The notes: generated by a model not told the origin, from the letters alone. A DNA stretch of 17,285 nucleotides from Candidatus Sumerlaeales bacterium (GCA_038243585.1 JBBSQY010000061.1:1-17285); one strand, 5' to 3'. Positions 5,586 through 17,285 are shown, counted from the stretch's first letter. Translations and numbers: made by a program.

Positions 5586-7058
5586 TCATTTTTTATAAGC
5601 GACCGCATCCAGAAACGCCCGTTGGGCTCGCACCAGGTGCATGATTTCCCCTGACATTCCCAATAGAAATAAAGCGATCACCGTCCACCGGAGAATTCTG
5701 CCGCGCAACGCATCGATCTTAAAACCCCAGGGTATCCGCGCAATCACGGCAAATAAGGCGAACCCGTAGCGCGTTGGGTTAACCAGCTCCAGATACGCCT
5801 CACCGTAACGGGTCATTGCGCAGGCGGCCAAGAGCAGCATCATGGCAACAGCTTTTAAAGACTCCGGGTTCCGCAGTGCTCCGCGAATGCTGGAGCCCCA
5901 TGCCGCGCATAAAAACGGAGCAAAAGGTAAAATGTACTAGCCGAAGACGTCGGCCTGGGCGAAAAACGTGTAGCCGATTACGTAGCCAATGAGTGCAGCA
6001 TAGACAGCACGCTGAGGGCCTCTTGCCGAAGCAATCCCCATAAACGCAAGGAGCCATCCTGATAAGAGCCACGAATTGACGTAATCTTGTTGGATCATTA
6101 ATTGCCGCCGGATCAGGTCAAACAGTCCCCCTAAATCCGCAAACCTCGCTGCCTGTGCCTGCATCGTATCTACGAACTGCAGGAGGCCATAGGTGATCGC
6201 AAAGCTAAATACGATCAATAAGGCAAGAACGGCTCCGGCGCAGGTCCATAGGCAGGGGAACAAGGCCCTTCGCCCGCGGAACAGGGTCGCCGACCAGGCG
6301 AATGCCGCCGGGACCGTAGCCAAGGCGACGATTTTTGCACCGCCGGCTAACCCGACGGCGACAGTAATGATGCCAGCCGCGCGGGAATGCGGCATCCATC
6401 CGCGACGCCACCGTTCCAATACATAAAAAGTGCCTAGGGTCAAAGGAGTGGTCAACGTGTCCGGTACCACCAGACGGTGATGAATGACGAGAACATCAAT
6501 ACACGAAAACATCACCAACGAGACAAGTGCCGCGACAGGTCCGATGGCCAGACGCAGCCAGCCCCACATGAGCCAGAATGACGCCGCAAACAGCAGCACT
6601 GACTGCATTCGCAATCGACCTAGAGGAACATCCCAGAGCGTGGTTACGGATGCCGGGCGCTCCAGGTTTGCGACCATGGCGGTTGCACCGGCCGCCGTTG
6701 CTGACAGCCCCGTGAGCAGGGAAAACACCGGTGGCTGATCAAACGCCGGACGCATTATGGTGTATTCGGCGCTTTTCCATTTGAAGATGCCAAGGATAGG
6801 CGTCTCTGGCTTGTGCAGCATTGTCCAGGCTATTGGAGCTTCGCCTTCTATCATCGACATTCCACTCCAGAGATAAAAGTATTCGTCATTGGTAGCCTGA
6901 GGCGGAGGCACGGTCGCCAGCCACGCCAACCGATGGACCACCGCCAACGCAAATAGCCCCCACAAAAGCCAGCGGCATGATTTGCGGAAAAAAAACAGTT
7001 GGCTGACACGCTGCGTAACTCGCGGTTGCGGGAAATTTTGTTGGGAGAATCTGGTCAT
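5586..7058 (-). pseudogene. GT-C fold (ArnT/PMT-like) membrane glycosyltransferase, 490 codons, interrupted by an in-frame TAG at 5937-5939
   Basis: TM1 followed by NDEYFY acidic motif, later DQPPVF (DHPP-like), many TM helices. The frame continues past the TAG as (ADVFG*)YILPFAPFLCAAWGSSIRGALRNPESLKAVA straight into ORF 5586..5843 (same frame, 93 nt apart). Confidence 0.75.
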
Positions 7059-7221: not shown

Positions 7222-8709
7222 ATGACAAGCTTTGCCGCGACTCACGCCCCGCGTTTCAATTATCCCAAAAATCAATTTCTCTATTGGCTCTTATTGTTTC
7301 CTGTTTTCCTCGCGTTAACGCTCCTGATTCATATTAAGAGTCTTCGAAGCAATCTGATTTTTGATGACGTGGCGGTACCTCTCTATTTTACGAACCCGAA
7401 TTTCGGCTGGGTCGACTGCGTTCTTCCCCTGGGAAACGGCTTTATCAGAGCTATAATGATGCTTCATTTTAAGTTGCTTTACGAAACTGTGAACGTCGCA
7501 CCATTCTGGTACCATCTCAGTGCGGCGGGGCTCCATGCAGCGGTGGCAGCCACGGCGGGGGTTGCATTCTGTATTTTAGTCGGCGTCTCCCGGCCTGTCG
7601 GGGCACTGGTTGGCCTATCAGTAACCTTTGCCTCTGCGGCATTCCCTGTTGTTTTTATGTTAAGTAACGCCGGGGACTCACTCATCGCTCTCGCGGCTCT
7701 TTTGTTAATTTCATGGTGGGCTATGTGGCTGCATACAGGGCAGATTAAGTATCTATGGTTATTGGCATTGTCTGTTCTTGTGGCGTTTGGTGGAAAAGAG
7801 TCAGGAGTCACCATTGGCGGCATCATCGTATTACAAACCTGGATAATGCGTCCGGTTCGCCCAAAGGCTTGGCTCATAACAAGCATTGTTTTTAGTGTTT
7901 GCGTAGTTTACGGCCTTGTGATAACGAAAATACAAGATTCTAATGAAGCTTCGTACGCGAATGCAGGCTGGGTTTCCCATGATCCCATTGAAATCTCGAG
8001 GCGTATAGTTGGATATCTGACTGCTGTCTTTTTCCCTGGCAGTTTCATTATGGATCCCCTGTTCCCATCGACCAAACTTAGCACCGCATTTGTGTTTGCT
8101 TTGCGCTCTCTCTCAGGTTTTTGTCTTTTGGCGTCGGTGTGGGTTGTGGTTCGAAGACGGGCGCGTCCGGTGATTCTGCGCGCGGCCATGTTCTACTGCG
8201 CCGCGGCTGGAATGCTTTTGCCGACGTCTATGCTAAACATGTCTGCCGGGCCATTTTCTCCAACCGGGCGGTTTCTATATTCGGCAATTCCGCTGTCTAT
8301 GCTCGCCCTGGGCTGCCTCGTGGTGGCGTGGTGGCCGGCGCGCCGAGCGATGCAATACCTGATGTTTTCTGTCTGGTTCGTCTGGCTGGTAATGCAAGTT
8401 TGGGTGGTTCGGAAGTCGCCGGGGACTCTAGCTTACTACGAGACGGCGCGAGAATGGAAGAACTTTATTGGGGAAATGGAGCGTCTGTCGCCGGAATGGC
8501 CGCCTATGCAGGCAGTAACCGTGTACACCGGGCCGCCACACGGGAGTCGAACCCTCGACGAAGGCTATGGACTCGCTATATTCCGAGTCTATTTTCCCAC
8601 CCTGCTGGCCAACTATTACAGTAACCGCACAATTCCCGAAACAACCCGGGCTTACGTGTTTGATGGGAAAAAGATGACGCCTGCCCCAATATTACCGCCG
8701 GGGCAGTAG
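7222..8709 (+). CDS. Multi-pass membrane protein, probable GT-C glycosyltransferase (TMTC/PMT-like, no TPR repeats)
   Basis: 495 aa, about 10-11 hydrophobic segments; LIFDD after TM1, WYHL, KE motif (GGKESGV), RFLY motif near the last helices, soluble C-terminal tail. Confidence 0.72.
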   Translation: MTSFAATHAPRFNYPKNQFLYWLLLFPVFLALTLLIHIKSLRSNLIFDDVAVPLYFTNPNFGWVDCVLPLGNGFIRAIMMLHFKLLYETVNVAPFWYHLSAAGLHAAVAATAGVAFCILVGVSRPVGALVGLSVTFASAAFPVVFMLSNAGDSLIALAALLLISWWAMWLHTGQIKYLWLLALSVLVAFGGKESGVTIGGIIVLQTWIMRPVRPKAWLITSIVFSVCVVYGLVITKIQDSNEASYANAGWVSHDPIEISRRIVGYLTAVFFPGSFIMDPLFPSTKLSTAFVFALRSLSGFCLLASVWVVVRRRARPVILRAAMFYCAAAGMLLPTSMLNMSAGPFSPTGRFLYSAIPLSMLALGCLVVAWWPARRAMQYLMFSVWFVWLVMQVWVVRKSPGTLAYYETAREWKNFIGEMERLSPEWPPMQAVTVYTGPPHGSRTLDEGYGLAIFRVYFPTLLANYYSNRTIPETTRAYVFDGKKMTPAPILPPGQ

Positions 8710-8808: not shown

Positions 8809-10362
8809 TTACTTGACGTTCTTCAGGAAGTCCGCTTTGTAAGCGACAATCGCTTTTTTCATGGTTTCCTGAAGCTCCGGAGATAGATCCTTCTTCGTTT
8901 CTATTGTGTGAGGGATGTCGGCATATTCGGCTTCAATGTAAGGGAAGAGGCCAGCCTCAAAACGCTTGAGGTGTTTAACTTCCATATCATCCAGATAGCC
9001 CTGAGTTGCGGCGAAGATGATGGAGACCTGCTGCCATAGCTGGTATGGGCTGTATTGATCCTGCTTCAGCACTTCAACCAGACGTTCACCACGGGTTAGC
9101 TGCGCTTTGGTTGCGGCATCGAGATCAGAACCGAACTGAGCGAAGGCTGCCAGTTCACGGTATTGCGCGAGTTCGAGGCGTAGCTTGCCGCCGACCTTCT
9201 TCATGGCTTTGGTTTGCGCATTACCACCCACACGACTAACCGAGAGACCTACGTTAACGGCTGGTTTAACGCCTGAGTAGAAAAGGTCAGGTTCGAGGAA
9301 GATCTGACCATCGGTGATGGAAATAACGTTTGTCGGAATATAAGCGGAAACGTCGCCAGCCTGAGTTTCGATGAAGGGGAGCGCCGTTAGAGAACCGCCG
9401 GCAGCTTTCGCTTCAGGGCAGGCGTTCTGCAGGATGCTCATATCTTCGCTCAGTTTGCAGGCGCGCTCAAGCAACCTGCTGTGTAGGTAGAACACGTCTC
9501 CGGGGTAGGCTTCGCGCCCTGGCGGCCGACGTAGCAGGAGCGACAGGGTACGGTAGGCGGCTGCCTGTTTGGAAAGATCGTCGTAGATGCACAGGGCGTG
9601 ACCGCCGTTGTAAAGGAAGTATTCGCCGATGGCGCAGCCGGTGTATGGAGCAATATACTGAAGCGCTGCGGCTTCGTCTGCAGTTGCGCTTACGATAATC
9701 GTGTAATCCATAGCGCCGAACTGGGTCAATGTTTCAAGAATGCCGGCAACAGTAGATGCTTTTTGGCCGATGGCGACGTAAATGCAGATAACGTCTTTGC
9801 CCTTTTGATTGATGATGGCATCCAAAGCAATGGCCGTCTTGCCGATCTGACGATCGCCGATTATCAATTCGCGCTGTCCGCGCCCGACAGGAATCATCGC
9901 GTCGATAGCCTTGATTCCGGTCATCAGCGGTTCATATACGCTCTGGCGAGCAATAACGTTTGGCGCGGTGCTTTCTACCGGGCGAAATTCCGTAGAAGTA
10001 ATCGGACCTTTACCGTCGATAGGTTCACCGAGAGCGTTGACTACCCGGCCAATAAGTTCGGGCCCGACAGGCACGCTGAGAATTTTGCCAGTGCGGCGTA
10101 CGACGTCGCCCTCTTTAATCTGCTGATCGCTGCCAAATAGCGCAACACCTACACTGGCTTCTTCCAGGTTAAGTACCACGCCTTTCATGCCTCCGGTAAA
10201 CTCCAGCAGCTCGCCGGCCATGGCTTCGTTTAAGCCATAAACGGTGGCGATGCTGTCGCCCACCCGAAGGATGGTGCCTACCTTCTCGACGTCGAGAGAC
10301 GAATCGAAACCGGCAAGTTCCTGCTCAATGACGCTCGTGATTTCTTCTGCCCGAATTGCCAT
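8809..10362 (-). CDS. atpA: F0F1 ATP synthase subunit alpha
   Basis: 517 aa; [17 protein letters not shown] (Walker A), [60 protein letters not shown]. Confidence 0.99.
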
Positions 10363-10382
10363 GTTCTGCCCTTTATTCCTTT

Positions 10383-10892
10383 TCAGATGCCTTCGAAAAT
10401 TTGGTTTTCATTAACCGGATCGTACAGCATGGGCGGCGTCTTGCCGGCCACCCGCAGATAAACAGTGAGTTGTCCGCGGTGATGTGCGTCATGGTCAATC
10501 ATCAGGTATGCTACCTGACCGCGCGTCATGCGCCATTCTGGTCCGAACGGCTCAATTTCTTCGAGCCAGAACTCCGGCGTCGCCTTTTGCGCTGCTTCCG
10601 TTACTTCGCTAATCATTAGTTTTATAGAGGCGAGAGCCGCCTTTACGGTAGAAACATCAAATTGGCGTTCAAAAGCGGAGTGTGCGACTTGTTCATCCGA
10701 TAAAACCGACTTTGTAAAGTTGTCGCTGGCGCAAATTTGTTGAATCTGTTCGCTGGCGGTCATGCTGCCTTCGCCAGGTCGAACTTTAAGGTCGTCGTCA
10801 TTAAAACTTTTAACGAGACGAGCAGTCCAGAGGGCCTGGCGCATAAAGTCATCACAAAATCCCGCAGGATTGACCTGTGCCACGCCCCTCAT
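10383..10892 (-). CDS. DinB/YfiT-superfamily protein
   Basis: 169 aa; ...[20 protein letters not shown]... and C-terminal [27 protein letters not shown], the H-x3-H-RGQ-L..YLR..G..PP signature of DinB proteins. ATG overlaps the atpH stop (TAATG). Confidence 0.9.
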
Positions 10893-11443
10893 TACCTTGT
10901 GCTCCGTTGCAACTGAAACCGCATCCGGTCCAGCTTGCCTTTGACCGTGTCGTCGATTAGTAAATCGCCCATGGTAAAGCGAACCCCTGCTATCAACGCG
11001 GGTTCAACTGTGTAACGGAGGCGCAGGCGGGATTTTGTGTAAGTCTCCAGAGCCTGCTGAACCCGGGTCTGATCTTCTTGGGACAAAACAACCGCCGTTG
11101 TTACATGGGCGTGATGCAGGCCCTGGTCGGCTTCCGCCAGCTCGATAAAACGTTCAAAAATGGGACGAGCGTACTCTATGCGGCCTTTATTAATAAGCAT
11201 TACGAGGAGCTGTTCGACGACGGGCTGAACTTTTCCACCAAAGAGTTTATGGACCAGCGCGAGCTTGTTCTCTGTAGGGAACTGGGGACCTTCAAGAAAC
11301 ACGGCCAGTTTTGAATCTCTTTTCAGGAGAATCAAAAGCTGCTGCGCATCATCTATAATGGCGTCAAGATTGCTTTTGCCTTTGCCCACATTAAACAGAG
11401 CTTTGGCATAGCGCTCACTTACGGTTGAATCGTATACGATCAC
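10892..11443 (-). CDS. atpH: F0F1 ATP synthase subunit delta
   Basis: 183 aa; VSERYAKALF, KGRI, VTTAVVLS, VEPALIAG...GDLLIDDTVKGKL; GTG start overlaps the atpF stop (GTGA). Confidence 0.96.
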   Translation of the reverse strand: MIVYDSTVSERYAKALFNVGKGKSNLDAIIDDAQQLLILLKRDSKLAVFLEGPQFPTENKLALVHKLFGGKVQPVVEQLLVMLINKGRIEYARPIFERFIELAEADQGLHHAHVTTAVVLSQEDQTRVQQALETYTKSRLRLRYTVEPALIAGVRFTMGDLLIDDTVKGKLDRMRFQLQRSTR

Positions 11444-11928
11444 CGGCGGCCCAGCTCTTCAACAAAATTGGTAACAAGCGCGTGCTGGCGCGGCTCGTCC
11501 ATGTTCTGACGGATAAGTTTTTCCGTGGCGGAAAGGGTCATTCTCACGACATCCTGTTTCAGCTCCGCACGGGCCTTGTCTAACTCAATTGCAATAGACT
11601 GTTCGGCTTTTAGGCGGGTGGCTTCGCTGTCGCGGCGAGCCTGGTCTGCTACTTGTTCAGCAATCTGCTTTCCCTGAGCCATGGCTTCCTGAAGTTTCAG
11701 GCGAGCCTCGGCCTCTATGTCGCTCATACGTTTGCTGTAGTCAGCTTGAAGCTGGTCCACCTGGCGTTGCATGGCATCAATCTTATCAAATTCGCCCTTG
11801 ATTTTTGCCTGGCGCTGCGCAATGGTATCAAGCATCGGCCCCCAGAACATTTTTTTGGCGATGAAAGCGAAGATGAAAAACGCAAGTAGCGTTGTCAGTA
11901 TCTGCGCAATTGTTGTATTATCCAGCAT
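11440..11928 (-). CDS. atpF: F0F1 ATP synthase subunit b
   Basis: 162 aa; single N-terminal TM helix, KKMFWGPMLDTIAQRQAKI, long coiled-coil; canonical position between atpE and atpH. Confidence 0.96.
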   Translation of the reverse strand: MLDNTTIAQILTTLLAFFIFAFIAKKMFWGPMLDTIAQRQAKIKGEFDKIDAMQRQVDQLQADYSKRMSDIEAEARLKLQEAMAQGKQIAEQVADQARRDSEATRLKAEQSIAIELDKARAELKQDVVRMTLSATEKLIRQNMDEPRQHALVTNFVEELGRR

Positions 11929-12082: not shown

Positions 12083-12322
12083 TTACTCGGCCATAAATGT
12101 TGCGCCGGCGATAAACGGCGAAATCAGCGCGTAAATTGCAAGAGCCTCAATAAAAGCGCAACCCAGGATCATGCTGATCTGAATTTTGCCTGCGGCTTCC
12201 GGCTGACGGCCGATGGCTTCCATCGCGGAACCCACTGCGTTGCCGAGGCCCAGACCAGCGCCAAGCGCAGCCAAGCCAAGTCCAATTGGGTATCCCATCG
12301 CGATCATAGATGCCTTATCCAT
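12083..12322 (-). CDS. atpE: F0F1 ATP synthase subunit c
   Basis: 79 aa; GAGLGLG glycine motif, RQPE loop, carboxylate in FIEALAIY. Confidence 0.99.
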
Positions 12323-12408: not shown

Positions 12409-13482
12409 TCAGGCGAACGGCACGACGCCGGCGTCTACATGACCACTGTTTTCATTCTTTTCTTCAGCGCCCGGCATTAGCGGGTGCTCATCTTCGCCAT
12501 GCGCGTGACCCTCGTGATCATGGTGTGGCAAGACCATCGAGAGATAAATTGCTGCAAGCAGCGAAAAAACCAACGCCTGGATTGTGCCGCCAAGCAGCAC
12601 GAGGAACAGAAACGGTAAGTGGAGGGGCACCCCAATAATTGGATCAGGAACAACAGCGCCGGCCATCATAATGCCTAGCAGTAGGAAAACGCCCAACAGA
12701 ATATCCTCACCCATGATGTTACCAAAGAGACGTAGCGACAGGGAAAGTGGTTTCGCAAGGGTTCCCACGACTTCAAGCACAAAAAGCACCGGGCTAATCG
12801 CCCACCCCACAGCATCCTTGGGGCTGCCCGCCAAATGCCACAGAAAGTGGCCGAGTCCGCCTTCAAAGATACCATAGAAAATGAAGTAGAAAAACACTAT
12901 GAGAGCAAGAGTAACCGTTGTTTGGAACTTTGCTGTTGCAGGCGCCAGAAAGGGGAAAAGGGCAGTAAGGTTGTTGATCCAGATAAATAGGAACAAGCTG
13001 CACAAAAAGGGCACGTGCTTCTTGTGCTCTTTGCCGACGATCCCTGTGAAAAAGTCTGTCACGCCCTCTACAAGCATTTCAAGCCCAACCTGCAGTTTGC
13101 CAGGACGCAAGGAGACCAGCTTTAAAGAGCCAAAGAACGCCAGGGCACTAATAGTGAGCACAAGCAGCAGGTAAATCGACTTTTCATAACCCGCCAGAAA
13201 CTTACCGAAAGCTGTTTGGCCAACCGTGTGGCCGTCGCCCAGCTGAATCTTATTAATGATATAAATTATCGTGGGAAGTTCCGGCGCGTGGGGTGCATGA
13301 TGCTCCTCAGCGTGAGCATCATTAGGCCCATGGGTTGCCGCTTCAGCCGGCGTATTAATAAGTTCTCCCGTATGAGCAACAGCCGGCGCTGCTTCACGAG
13401 CATTTACGATAGCCGGCGCAGCGAAAACCAGCGCCACCAACAACAACAGACTTGTTAATTTTCCCACTATTACCTGTCCCAT
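12409..13482 (-). CDS. atpB: F0F1 ATP synthase subunit a, with His-rich N- and C-terminal extensions
   Basis: 357 aa; PGKLQ..LE, LFIWINNL, KPLSLSLRLFGNI (essential Arg), IQALVFSLLAAIYL. Alternative GTG start at 13467. Confidence 0.97.
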   Translation of the reverse strand: MGQVIVGKLTSLLLLVALVFAAPAIVNAREAAPAVAHTGELINTPAEAATHGPNDAHAEEHHAPHAPELPTIIYIINKIQLGDGHTVGQTAFGKFLAGYEKSIYLLLVLTISALAFFGSLKLVSLRPGKLQVGLEMLVEGVTDFFTGIVGKEHKKHVPFLCSLFLFIWINNLTALFPFLAPATAKFQTTVTLALIVFFYFIFYGIFEGGLGHFLWHLAGSPKDAVGWAISPVLFVLEVVGTLAKPLSLSLRLFGNIMGEDILLGVFLLLGIMMAGAVVPDPIIGVPLHLPFLFLVLLGGTIQALVFSLLAAIYLSMVLPHHDHEGHAHGEDEHPLMPGAEEKNENSGHVDAGVVPFA

Positions 13483-13486
13483 TATA

Positions 13487-13912
13487 CTAAACTTTAGCCG
13501 CCCGTTTTTTTTCTGTCGGAACCGATGATGAGGTTGCCATGGCTGCTACTTTTGATCCAAGAGCTTTTAAGAAGGCGACTATTAATACAGAACTTACGCC
13601 GGCTATAATGGCGTACAGCTCCTCATGCTGATACGGAGCAAAAATACGAAGGGCAACAACACCGCCGATTAGCAGTAAGAGTTTAACTGAGAGGGCAAGG
13701 AGAAGAACGGCAACGGAGGGTTTTTCGTCTTTCGGGTTCAGGGCCAAACGAATTACAATGGTCCATATAAGCAAATTGGCGATCATCCATGCAGACGTAA
13801 CGGCAAAGGCCAGGCCTGCGGCCCTGCTGTATGCAAAGAAACATAATACGCCCACTGCACATGCGATGGCCGTTGTCTTTGCAATTTGTCGTATCCGCTG
13901 CGGAATCATCAT
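13487..13912 (-). CDS. atpI: ATP synthase protein I (AtpI/UncI-like, 4 TM)
   Basis: 141 aa, four hydrophobic helices, immediately upstream of atpB; ATGA overlap with the preceding gene. Assignment rests mainly on position and topology. Confidence 0.7.
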   Translation of the reverse strand: MMIPQRIRQIAKTTAIACAVGVLCFFAYSRAAGLAFAVTSAWMIANLLIWTIVIRLALNPKDEKPSVAVLLLALSVKLLLLIGGVVALRIFAPYQHEELYAIIAGVSSVLIVAFLKALGSKVAAMATSSSVPTEKKRAAKV

Positions 13913-14154
13913 TTACCGTCTTTTTGCATCTTTTTAAGCAGTTTCATCATTTCACGGATACCCGCTGCAGAGCCAAACAGCAAACCCGCAAGTAGTCCCC
14001 AAGGGGAACTTTGCAGCCATTTATCTATTAATGCGCCCAATACACAACCAACCAGAACGCAAGCCATTAGCATGGTTGGAACCAAAATGCCGGCTCCAAC
14101 TGTTCTCATGGTCCGGTAACGGTCCTCGGAGTCCTTATCGTTTTCACCAGCCAC
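13909..14154 (-). CDS. atpZ: AtpZ/AtpI-family two-helix ATP synthase accessory protein
   Basis: G..LGALIDKWLQSSPWGLLAGLLFGSAAG signature; start reassigned to GTG 14154, preceded by AGGAAGG (81 aa). Confidence 0.88.
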   Translation of the reverse strand: MAGENDKDSEDRYRTMRTVGAGILVPTMLMACVLVGCVLGALIDKWLQSSPWGLLAGLLFGSAAGIREMMKLLKKMQKDGK

Positions 14155-14272
14155 GTAGATCCTTCCTGACAGACGCCAAAAGCAGAAATATTTATCTGGG
14201 TCCTCGAAAGGTTCACTTGTGAAAAAAATCACGGACTCGAACGTTCAATATTGGCTATTGGGTCAAATAATC

Positions 14273-14300
14273 AAAAAAACCATCAGCTTCAGGTTAATGG
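14273..14300 (-). terminator. Possible weak intrinsic terminator overlapping the trxB stop
   Basis: Minus strand CCATTAAC-CTGAA-GCTGATGG-TTTTTTT; imperfect stem (one G-U pair, one mismatch) plus T7. Confidence 0.35.
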
Positions 14301-15467
14301 ACCCTGGGCTTTTTCTCGGCCGCTCTGCTCGGTCATCCGTTCCATCAGCTTTACATAGCTTTGGCTGTCTTCGCTCTCGATGCCATACAGTACTGGGTTG
14401 GAAGTTATAAACCTTTCAGAATCAATGGCGGCCATGCATCCACTTCCGGCTGCTGTTACGGCCTGGCGGTACACGTGATCCTGACAATCGCCGCAGGCAA
14501 ATACTCCTGCGAGCATCTCGCCGTTTGGATTGTTGACGACAGTCGAACGACCGCGAGTGCGGATATAGCCGAGGTCGTCCATATCAAGCTGGCCCTTGAA
14601 AATATCGGTGTTTGGCTTATGGCCAATAGCCATAAAAACTCCGTCGCAAGGCACTTCACGCTGCTCGCCTGTCTTTACGTCTTCGAGACGGACGCCTGTG
14701 ACAGATTTGCGGAAGCCTTCTGTCTGTCCAAGAATTTCCGTAATCTTCGAATTAACGATCCACTTGACCTTATCATTGGCCCGGGCTCGCTCAAGCATAA
14801 TGGCGCTGGCGCGGAATTCGTCGCGCCTATGCACAACGGTAACTGTGCGACAATGGCGCGTAAGATAATTGGCTTCTTCCATGGCGGTATCTCCACCGCC
14901 TACTACTATTACATCTTTATCTTTAAACAAGCTGCCATCGCAGGTGGCGCAGGCGCTTACGCCGTAATTTTTGTACTCTTCTTCGCTAGGCAGTCCCAGC
15001 CAACGGGCGCTGGCGCCAGTGGCGATGATGATCGCTTCTGCAAAATGGCTTTCTCCGTCAACCACAACGCGCAGAGGACGACATTTAAAATCTACCTGTT
15101 CGACGCGCTTAAAACGGCAGTCGGCACCAAAATGCTGAGCCTGGGCCCGCAGGATGGCCATCATTTCCGGACCGGAGAGAAAACTTTCTATTTTTGAAAC
15201 GGAATTACCGACTTCGTCTTTGGAAAGGCTGTGCTGATAAACTCCAGGATAGTTCTCCACATCGCTGGTCATCATCAGCTGACCGCCGGGGGTTGTCTGT
15301 TCGAACCCGTCTCCCTCAAACACCAGCGGCGCCAGGTTGGCGCGGGCGGAATACAGTGCGGCGGTAAGCCCAGCTGGGCCGCTGCCTATCACAATGATGT
15401 TTCTTACCTCAACCCGCTTAAGCCGTGTCGTCGTGAATCGTGTCGTAATCGAACTCGTGTCTGACAT
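14289..15467 (-). CDS. trxB: Thioredoxin-disulfide reductase
   Basis: [11 protein letters not shown] (FAD), [25 protein letters not shown] (redox CxxC), [11 protein letters not shown] and HRRD (NADPH), [19 protein letters not shown]. Likely start ATG 15467 after GAGGT; the ORF track starts at 15485. Confidence 0.97.
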
Positions 15468-15671
15468 GTTACCTCGCTCTTTCAAAAAACCGTATGCAGT
15501 TAATCAGGTGATGCGGTGCGCTACCAGGAACACTCAATAGAAAGTTATGTTTGCAAACTATCGCCAAACATGGAAATTCTTCGAGCGCACGCGAGGCAGG
15601 TGATGCCACCGGCGCTATCACCATGTACGCATTGAAAAGCTAACAAAATCCGGGCCATAAGTGATGGGAAT

Positions 15672-15737: not shown

Positions 15738-17285
15738 TTAGTAAATAGCCCAGTCAGACACGTCAGCCATTGTATTCTGGGCGCCAGGGGTACCAGAGTT
15801 TTTAGGCGTACCTTCAACAACCAGCGCTGGATGACCATGCCAGTTGCTACCGATAGCATTGTCCAGGTCAGGGCTGTTCAGTTCGATACTCTGACCCGTG
15901 GTGTTGCTGGTGGTCACCGGCCATCCGTCTGCAGTAGACGAATACGTCAGGTCATCCACATAAGTGGTCACACCGTTAAAACGGAATCCGTTTGGATGAC
16001 TCACATATATCCGATCCGAACTATTGCCCAGACTGAATGGATATTGATAGACTGGCACCCCAGCCGGAAGAGTAAAATCCGCCGCCATTGCCGTTGGGTT
16101 GAACGATAGAACAACATACCCGTTAGCAGCGATAACCGCATTGTCCGGAAACGTAAAGTATTCGGCGCTTGCGTCACCCACGCGATACTGGGAAAGTGTA
16201 ACGGTTGTGCTACTGGTATTATACAGTTCCAGCCATTCATAGCTATCGGTGCCTATAATATCATACTGGATTTCGTTGATGACGATCGACGTTGCTGGGT
16301 TATTATCGACCACGAAAACTTTATTGTCAGGACGCGCGCCTACGGACGGAAACCTGGTTACACTTGAATCTTCGTCTGTCGCCTCAACGTAGTATTTGAC
16401 GACAGTGCCGTCAACAAAAGGTCCGACAGTTACGGAGTAGCTTGTGCCTACTGCCGTTGCTGCGGTTTCTACGAAACCGGCACCAGAATTCACCAGAAAT
16501 TTTACTCCGGATACAGTGCCGTCGCCGTCGGTGACATTGGCTGTGATCGTAATTTGATCTGCAGATGTCGGAAACTGCTTATCCCGCTCGACAGAGTTTA
16601 CAAAAGGCGGGGTATTAGTGGTTGATAGCGGTAGGGTTGTGGTACCCGGGGTCATCGTGCCTCTATCCAGGCTGGCTGTCCAGTTGGTAGCGGTCACCTC
16701 GGTGGATTCATCATGGCCCGTCAGCCCGCTGCCGCCTGTGCTTACTTCCGCGTCTTCCGCCAGGCTGACGCGCGTCACGACATTTGCCGAAGTTGTTATG
16801 GATAAGTTTCCGTTTGTTCCGGCGTCAGGCTGATACGGAAAGTCTGTTTTAGGGACGAATCCATTGGCCGAATTTGCCGTGGTGGGGGTTCCCCACGATG
16901 CCATGTCAACGTCTGTGACAACGTCTCTGATTCCATTCCAATAGAAGAGAATCGAGAATTCACCATTAGTCGCAGAGGGGTTGGTGAGGTTAAAGTTAAC
17001 TGGCCTTGTGGCGGAATTGTTGAGCGAGATCATGTCAGGCACTTCTGCGTTTGTCGGCCCAACTTCAAAGATTAATGGAGCGCCGGGTAGCACATCATAG
17101 TTACTTTTCAGGCCGCCAAAAAACTCCGTAAAGAAATTTGTTGCTCCACCGGTGACTACTGCGACCTGGCCTGGCAGTAGCTGGAAACCGGCCGGGAAAC
17201 GAACCACGTGATCGGTGGTTGCGCCGCTCACTTTACCACTTGCGGAGGCCGGCAGACCTGAATAGTTGTTCGTGTCGGTCAGGTA
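15738..17285 (-). CDS. Secreted/surface protein with lamin-tail domains (LTD - Ig-like - LTD), 5'-truncated by the window edge
   Basis: The frame stays open to 17285 (YLTDTNNYSGLPASASGKVSGA..., at least 515 aa). LTD hallmarks IVINEIQY...YEWLELYN...VTLSQYRVGD...TPGAQN; an earlier LTD (YLTD...FPAG...LLPGQVAVV...TPG); Ig-like middle (ITITANVTDGDGTV...VKYYVEATD). Thr/Ser/Asn-rich. Confidence 0.88.
   Translation of the reverse strand, partial: YLTDTNNYSGLPASASGKVSGATTDHVVRFPAGFQLLPGQVAVVTGGATNFFTEFFGGLKSNYDVLPGAPLIFEVGPTNAEVPDMISLNNSATRPVNFNLTNPSATNGEFSILFYWNGIRDVVTDVDMASWGTPTTANSANGFVPKTDFPYQPDAGTNGNLSITTSANVVTRVSLAEDAEVSTGGSGLTGHDESTEVTATNWTASLDRGTMTPGTTTLPLSTTNTPPFVNSVERDKQFPTSADQITITANVTDGDGTVSGVKFLVNSGAGFVETAATAVGTSYSVTVGPFVDGTVVKYYVEATDEDSSVTRFPSVGARPDNKVFVVDNNPATSIVINEIQYDIIGTDSYEWLELYNTSSTTVTLSQYRVGDASAEYFTFPDNAVIAANGYVVLSFNPTAMAADFTLPAGVPVYQYPFSLGNSSDRIYVSHPNGFRFNGVTTYVDDLTYSSTADGWPVTTSNTTGQSIELNSPDLDNAIGSNWHGHPALVVEGTPKNSGTPGAQNTMADVSDWAIY

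Follow-up and report, generated by a model that had tools for sequence, protein, structure and literature searches.

A gene for a DinB-family protein lies between atpH and atpA in the ATP synthase operon of a Candidatus Sumerlaeales bacterium, and the order atpF-atpH-DinB-atpA is found in 11 of the 13 sampled genomes of the host family (probably Sumerlaeaceae, candidate phylum Sumerlaeota). We lean, with modest confidence, towards the view that its product is a co-expressed BstD-like enzyme, a stable and long-resident passenger of the operon and not a subunit of F1Fo. The gene was found in a stretch of 17,285 nucleotides, here called the window, from a genome (G000) of 3.43 Mb in 99 contigs that is 89.7% complete.

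The atp operon and the gene between atpH and atpA

Most of an F-type ATP synthase operon lies in the window, with the following features.

13909..14232, minus strand: atpZ-like gene, 107 aa, first in the operon (PF09527 ATPase_gene1, E 9.5e-12)
13487..13912, minus strand: membrane ORF, 141 aa, in an AtpI-like position, without Pfam match
12409..13482, minus strand: atpB (a subunit), 357 aa (PF00119, E 1.1e-47, residues 106-315)
12083..12322, minus strand: atpE (c subunit), 79 aa (PF00137, E 4.5e-14)
11440..11928, minus strand: atpF (b subunit), 162 aa (PF00430, E 4e-20), with a 4-nt overlap with atpH
10892..11443, minus strand: atpH (delta), 183 aa (PF00213, E 1.2e-42; TIGR01145 above cut-off)
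10890..10894, minus strand: TAATG junction of the atpH stop and the DinB start, read directly
10383..10892, minus strand: DinB-family gene, 169 aa, YjoA/BstD-like four-helix bundle (ORF, Pfam PF05163, AlphaFold2 model, Foldseek)
10363..10382, minus strand: DinB-atpA spacer, 20 nt, read directly
8809..10362, minus strand: atpA (alpha), 517 aa (TIGR00962, 798.7 bits; three alpha/beta domains)

The order on the minus strand is thus the atpZ-like gene, the 141-aa membrane ORF, atpB, atpE, atpF, atpH (identified in the Pfam scan of the window by its OSCP domain), the DinB gene and atpA, which is the last gene of the operon in the window and is followed by a convergent plus-strand ORF for a membrane protein (7222..8709). 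In tblastn searches with the window proteins the atpZ-like gene was present in 10 of 11 relatives' loci, and 9 of the 11 had a match to the 141-aa membrane ORF in the corresponding place. The a subunit (12409-13482, minus strand) is extended at its N-terminus by about 100 residues and ends in a tail rich in His (HHDHEGHAHGEDEH); in G019, a genome from another family of the phylum, the a subunit likewise has a His-rich C-terminus. Upstream of the operon and on the same strand lies a thioredoxin-reductase-like gene (Pyr_redox_2, 398 aa, 14289-15485, minus strand), also seen in 5 of 11 relatives' loci, including that of G006, which has no DinB gene at the site. Flanking genes encode a large protein that looks secreted and has a lamin-tail domain (15738-17285, minus strand) and two polytopic membrane proteins (5937-7058, minus strand, and 7222-8709, plus strand), one of them with a weak PMT_2 match.

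An earlier note on this DNA had described an intact 169-aa DinB-like ORF at 10383..10894 and left its strand unstated. The ORF is real: it has a Pfam PF05163 match, its frame is kept open in the relatives, and it lies on the minus strand; its true end is 10892, however, since the span to 10894 takes in the atpH stop. The start ATG occupies 10892-10890 and the stop TGA 10385-10383. As the note had read, the ATG overlaps the atpH stop, the last A of TAA being the A of ATG (TAATG, 1-nt overlap), and the gene ends 20 nt before atpA, counted from the DinB TGA to the atpA ATG. The 20-nt spacer contains AAGGAA and AAGGG, words resembling ribosome-binding sites.

The note had also stated that flanking repeats, a transposase and an internal terminator are lacking, and the repeat, ORF and minus-strand signal scans agree. 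Direct repeats were not found in 10200-11100, where the sole inverted pair (13 nt) has both arms within coding sequence; the window has no transposase-like ORF, and the consensus scan, which for promoters covered the sigma-70 type, gave no promoter-like or terminator-like site on the minus strand in 10362-11443. Over the whole region the totals of such sites were at the level of shuffled sequence, and an Rfam scan of the window returned 0 matches. The GC of the DinB gene (0.51) is similar to that of the adjoining genes. A recent mobile-element insertion was considered and is rejected, given the lack of repeats, transposase and GC anomaly and the conservation of the gene across genera.

Distribution and history of the arrangement

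The family sample comprised 13 genomes including that of the window, and the phylum sample 75 genomes, 62 of them outside the family. By tblastn with the window proteins, the order atpF-atpH-DinB-atpA was found in the window genome, in nine relatives with complete loci and in G001, where the locus is split, with atpF-atpH-DinB (residues 1-100) at one contig end and DinB (residues 80-169)-atpA at another. With an ortholog profile, ten of the 13 family genomes gave matches at E 1e-72 to 1e-80, the gene of G001 being cut by the two contig ends. The insertion is therefore no peculiarity of the window genome, which is what the earlier note had named as evidence against its reading. Its claim of tight coupling to atpH also holds: start and stop overlap in all 10 complete loci, and in the nine relatives the overlap is ATGA (4 nt). 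The spacer to atpA is more variable, 4-134 nt in the eight relatives measured (81 nt in G005, 134 nt in G009). The DinB frame is open in 10 genomes (162-169 aa), and the 10 orthologs have 29 invariant columns and are 35-55% identical to the window protein; two further proteins (P0002 and P0003) are 85% identical to it. That the frame stays open, with conservation in 10 further genomes, makes the ORF more than a chance one. The ortholog group is single copy per genome, and the position of the gene is fixed across at least seven genera.

Two family genomes, G006 (92% complete) and G010 (66%), have no DinB gene at the site, their atpH-atpA gaps being about 90 and 40 nt; elsewhere G006 has only a distant DinB paralog (E 1.1e-18). 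The ortholog is absent from the 62 phylum genomes outside the family (best match E 2.3e-17), and no atp gene lies within 1.5 kb of the weak matches examined (L014-L028, L030 and L031). Co-occurrence of the gene with ATP synthase is thus incomplete: 36 of 48 sampled non-family genomes have atpA, and the ortholog was not found in them. Further afield, the only one of 160 DinB-family loci listed from other lineages that has atp neighbors is a Sumerlaeaceae record, and none of the other 159 has them. A scan of GTDB species genomes gave one orthologous locus among the matches listed (L032, possibly a duplicate of a family genome already counted), and in a metagenome scan with a 28-row alignment the best locus among the matches listed was 32% identical. 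The ortholog profile reaches E 1e-30 with only 9 of 1.84 billion representative proteins, and a set of 5.8 billion clusters yielded 19 proteins at 47-100% identity, all without names; the intermediate relatives P0021-P0027 carry only the cluster name 'DinB'. Literature searches on DinB and ATP synthase operons, on Sumerlaeota and on atpH-atpA junctions gave, among the papers listed, no description of a DinB gene between atpH and atpA.

Comparison of the DinB and AtpA phylogenies, a check that the earlier note had suggested, showed agreement: the clades with support in the RpoB and AtpA trees, (G000, G002) and (G007, (G012, (G003, G011))), recur in the DinB tree, which fits vertical inheritance of the gene. 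The RpoB tree, which is without G009 (no rpoB match was found there), places G010, whose branch is long, as sister to the second clade (99/97) and does not resolve G006; in the AtpA tree neither of the two is resolved. In an AU test, grouping the DinB-bearing genomes as one clade gave p 0.048. These trees would most simply be read as a single gain close to the family's base with one or two losses afterwards, the alternative being a later gain. As regards selection, dS exceeded 1 or was not computable in 31 of 32 gene-pair comparisons (eight pairs for each of four genes), all eight DinB pairs included, so that dN/dS ratios are unreliable. The dN of DinB is near that of atpH (0.116 vs 0.082 for G003-G011 and 0.688 vs 0.633 for G000-G003) and, with synonymous sites saturated and the protein conserved, the gene is by all appearances under purifying selection, its rate of evolution being about that of delta.

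The adjacency of atpH and atpA that the earlier note had taken as normal holds in the Sumerlaeota. Both genes lie on one contig in 33 of the 48 sampled non-family genomes, with 20-222 nt between the matches in 32 of these 33; the corresponding distance in the DinB-bearing genomes is 521-655 nt. In G019 the junction is filled by a gene for a GFO/IDH/MocA oxidoreductase of 483 aa with a twin-arginine-like N-terminus (L171, contig C211, 2884-4335, minus strand); its congener G025 has a 20-nt gap and no insert. In G028 (L173, contig C93) the operon is broken after atpH, where Exo_endo_phos and CBM9 genes come next, and atpA is on another contig. The 3' end of the operon differs as well: in all 13 family genomes it ends at atpA and atpG is never next to atpA, and outside the family atpG directly follows atpA in 17 of the loci examined. 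In the window genome atpG stands alone on contig C22 (L003), between genes for a glycosyltransferase and a UDP-GlcNAc 2-epimerase, and atpD is on contig C1 (L277).

Some other features of these genes were observed. The AtpA of the family has a 12-residue insert (residues ~305-320) with a conserved 'SCP' motif, Cys315 being present in 11 of 13; the insert is missing in most other phylum genomes, and three carry a different one. In several genomes of families f3, f7 and f13 the match to atpA breaks off at residue 313-323, and the frames that hold it stay open for 559-610 aa; this would point to a large insertion in the alpha subunit of these lineages, perhaps an intein. The rpoB of G010 (L193, contig C7) has an open frame of 2031 aa vs about 1390 aa in its relatives and gives profile matches in separate pieces; large insertions are likely there.

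The DinB-like protein and its metal site

In the profile search that the earlier note had proposed, both families were above cut-off: DinB (PF05163) with E 9.6e-16 and a score of 58.6 bits where 23 is required, residues 23-162 covering positions 19-158 of the 165 in the profile, and DinB_2 (PF12867) with E 6.4e-9 and 36.8 bits against 24.8. These were the only Pfam matches, no NCBIfam model matches the protein, and neither the Pfam scan nor the structural neighbors listed show likeness to a known ATP synthase subunit or factor. The AlphaFold2 model built with 28 orthologs (pLDDT 93.8, pTM 0.89) is a four-helix bundle with long helices at 9-28, 46-65, 83-103 and 124-148. Its top Foldseek matches are 6IZ2, 3DKA, 3GOR, 3DI5 and 1RXQ, and its structural neighbors, among the matches listed to rank 48, are DinB-fold or DinB-domain proteins; by sequence profile the best solved relative is YjoA (3DKA, E 9e-17, near full length), followed by 3GOR and 3DI5. 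By HMM and by its modeled four-helix fold the protein thus fits the DinB family, and its conserved motifs are common to YjoA, 3GOR and 3DI5, i.e., they belong to the wider DinB family and mark no new surface. Co-folding of AtpA, AtpH and DinB, the b subunit being left out, gave a score of 0.00 and a mark of 0.32 (10-row alignment each, without controls), figures that weigh neither way on binding.

The metal site departs from the pattern of the family. In the window protein the triad positions are Q52, H134 and H138, so that of the three His ligands of BstA-H (one in helix 2 and the HxxxH of helix 4) the first is replaced. Position 52 is Gln in 20 of the 28 aligned orthologs, including the window protein, and His in 8, with G004 and G008 as examples of the His form, in an alignment biased towards the window clade by its 18 database proteins, which were picked by word-sharing with the window protein. 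H134, H137 and H138 (DHxxHHRGQL) are invariant among the aligned orthologs, and the His at position 52, where present, aligns with a His of 3DKA, 3GOR and 3DI5. The window genome has three other DinB-superfamily proteins, all with His at that position, and one of these is EgtB-like. The EgtB-like protein (L279, contig C9, 230-1399) has DinB_2 and FGE-sulfatase domains, an architecture suggestive of a sulfoxide synthase of the ergothioneine or ovothiol type. With Gln at position 52, the metal site of the window clade would be altered, and perhaps its chemistry too.

According to PMC5815605, all eight DinB/STL proteins of B. subtilis (BstA-H) transfer bacillithiol to monochlorobimane in an EDTA-sensitive manner; YjoA, renamed BstD, is among the two most active of the eight; three His are the only residues fully conserved among them (H67, H160 and H164 at the metal site of BstA); and which substrates these enzymes have in nature is unknown even in B. 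subtilis. Since the three His are fully conserved in that set and Gln replaces the first of them in the window copy, its transferase activity is uncertain and the protein is classed only as BstD-like and not as a proven Bst enzyme.

The window genome (89.7% complete) gave no match to glutathione synthetase (PF02955). BshC (PF10079), whose gene is the signature of bacillithiol synthesis, exceeds its cut-off in 12 of the 13 family genomes, the window copy being cut by the end of contig C88; in the control, BshC matches were confined to the known producers B. subtilis, Thermus and Deinococcus. This distribution of BshC indicates that the family, and with it the candidate phylum, probably makes bacillithiol.

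Passenger or partner of the ATP synthase, and the nearest known systems

The reading that we favor would run as follows. A gene for a soluble protein of about 19 kDa with a DinB fold, of the YjoA/BstD type and the S-transferase-like superfamily, may have entered the operon between delta and alpha in an ancestor common to most of the family, with vertical descent thereafter. As it appears to lack signals of its own, it would most likely be carried on the atp mRNA, and ribosomes terminating on atpH could restart at the overlapping DinB ATG; from the gene layout we infer both co-transcription and coupled translation with the atp genes. The operon position would give the gene steady, housekeeping-level expression. 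By analogy with the Bst enzymes the product is most likely a thiol-dependent, and probably bacillithiol-dependent, transferase or detoxifying enzyme, where 'detoxifying enzyme' is a generic label because the natural substrates of Bst enzymes are unknown. Several observations favor such a passenger: the ATP synthase of close relatives (G006 and G010) does without the gene, the atpH-atpA junction accepts unrelated DNA (the insert of G019 and the break of G028), neither the DinB protein nor AtpA gives a sign of a new interface, and the ortholog is absent from the 62 other phylum genomes. Against it, the constant overlap, the fixed position and the delta-like rate would be equally expected of a dedicated partner of the complex. 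If the gene is a passenger, it offers a clean and datable case of an essential, highly expressed operon that acquired and long held an unrelated enzyme gene, and the second unrelated insert and the split at the same junction in the phylum add to the signs that delta|alpha is a favored slot.

It is possible, and we hold the idea only tentatively, that the protein is a lineage-specific accessory of F1Fo, be it an assembly chaperone for alpha or delta, a regulator, or a bacillithiol-dependent protector or modifier of alpha cysteines. Its gene is encoded exactly between delta and alpha with the stop/start overlap in every complete locus, is single copy, evolves at about the AtpH rate and was retained through a family radiation in which AtpA identities are 77-91%; the atp locus of the family is itself rearranged, with atpG and atpD elsewhere; and the loss of the first metal His in the window clade while the protein stayed conserved would suit a role without the canonical metal site. 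On the other hand, two genera of the family and all other phylum genomes searched have no atp-embedded ortholog, and the RpoB tree puts G010 inside the DinB-bearing group, which implies a loss, although its branch is long and the AU test stands at p 0.048. The accessory reading can also point to the invariant Cys193, Cys243 and Cys258 of the family AtpA and to its inserted loop with Cys315, but the two DinB-less genomes have these cysteines as well, Cys315 among them; no AtpA cysteine tracks the presence of DinB, and the one column that does (F330) is too weak to use. The motifs common to YjoA, 3GOR and 3DI5, the Pfam results, the 159 listed DinB loci of other lineages without atp neighbors, and the unrelated gene that occupies the same junction in G019 likewise speak against an accessory. 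The earlier note had moved from co-expression to a candidate accessory, assembly or regulatory factor of F1F0, and that step is not sustained, given the absence of the ortholog from G006, G010 and the 62 phylum genomes and the variability of the junction. A more specific version, in which DinB is an F1 partner made together with delta and alpha (an assembly chaperone, or a bacillithiol-dependent modifier or protector of alpha cysteines) and the His loss of the window clade marks a shift from catalysis to binding, seems unlikely to us. Were the accessory reading true, the DinB superfamily would gain a defined physiological partner and ATP synthase a new layer of control; were the F1 partner real, no DinB-superfamily protein would have been linked to ATP synthase before it, and bacteria would have in it a counterpart of the thiol-based control of this enzyme.

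Two further explanations concern the gene itself. Separate transcription from a promoter inside atpH, or processing of the mRNA, would leave DinB expression untied from that of the ATP synthase; the long DinB-atpA spacers of G005 and G009 would allow for it, as would the limitation of the promoter scan to the sigma-70-type consensus, but the minus strand around DinB has no promoter-like or terminator-like site and start and stop codons overlap at the atpH-DinB junction of all complete loci, which leaves no room for a separate 5' leader, so that we judge this quite improbable. That the ORF is non-functional, by chance or as a decaying remnant, is scarcely credible: the replaced triad His of the window protein could be read as a sign of decay, but open frames of 162-169 aa in 10 genomes, 29 invariant columns, the Pfam E value of 9.6e-16 and the model pLDDT of 93.8 contradict it.

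Among known systems, the co-expressed BstD-like passenger that we favor comes nearest to YjoA/BstD (3DKA). Besides being the best profile match, YjoA is a single-domain four-helix bundle like the window protein (Foldseek TM 0.71/0.83), the two have motifs around 'P..GSM' and 'EHEIHH+GQL.VY.R' in common, and the host lineage of the window protein has the bacillithiol synthesis gene BshC. The differences are an identity of 24% and the Gln that the window protein has for the first triad His; in addition, the available text of PMC5815605 describes no link of YjoA to ATP synthase. DR0053 of Deinococcus radiodurans (6IZ2, DinB/YfiT family) is the top Foldseek match (E 7.6e-06, TM 0.74/0.86) but is only 19% identical; its transcript levels are highly induced, according to the available part of PMC4338110. 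YfiT/BstA (1RXQ) and the mycothiol S-transferase MST (8F5V) have the same fold class but are more distant (TM 0.64, 13-15% identity) and belong to the DinB_2/MST Pfam families and not to PF05163. On the side of the ATP synthase, the known soluble regulators and chaperones (epsilon, zeta, IF1, AtpTheta and Atp11/Atp12) include none known to have a DinB fold. The closest parallel there is offered by atpI and atpZ, extra small genes that are co-transcribed with the F1Fo genes, an atpZ-like gene heading the operon of the window; these lie at the operon's 5' end and encode membrane proteins, whereas the DinB gene encodes a soluble enzyme fold and sits between delta and alpha.
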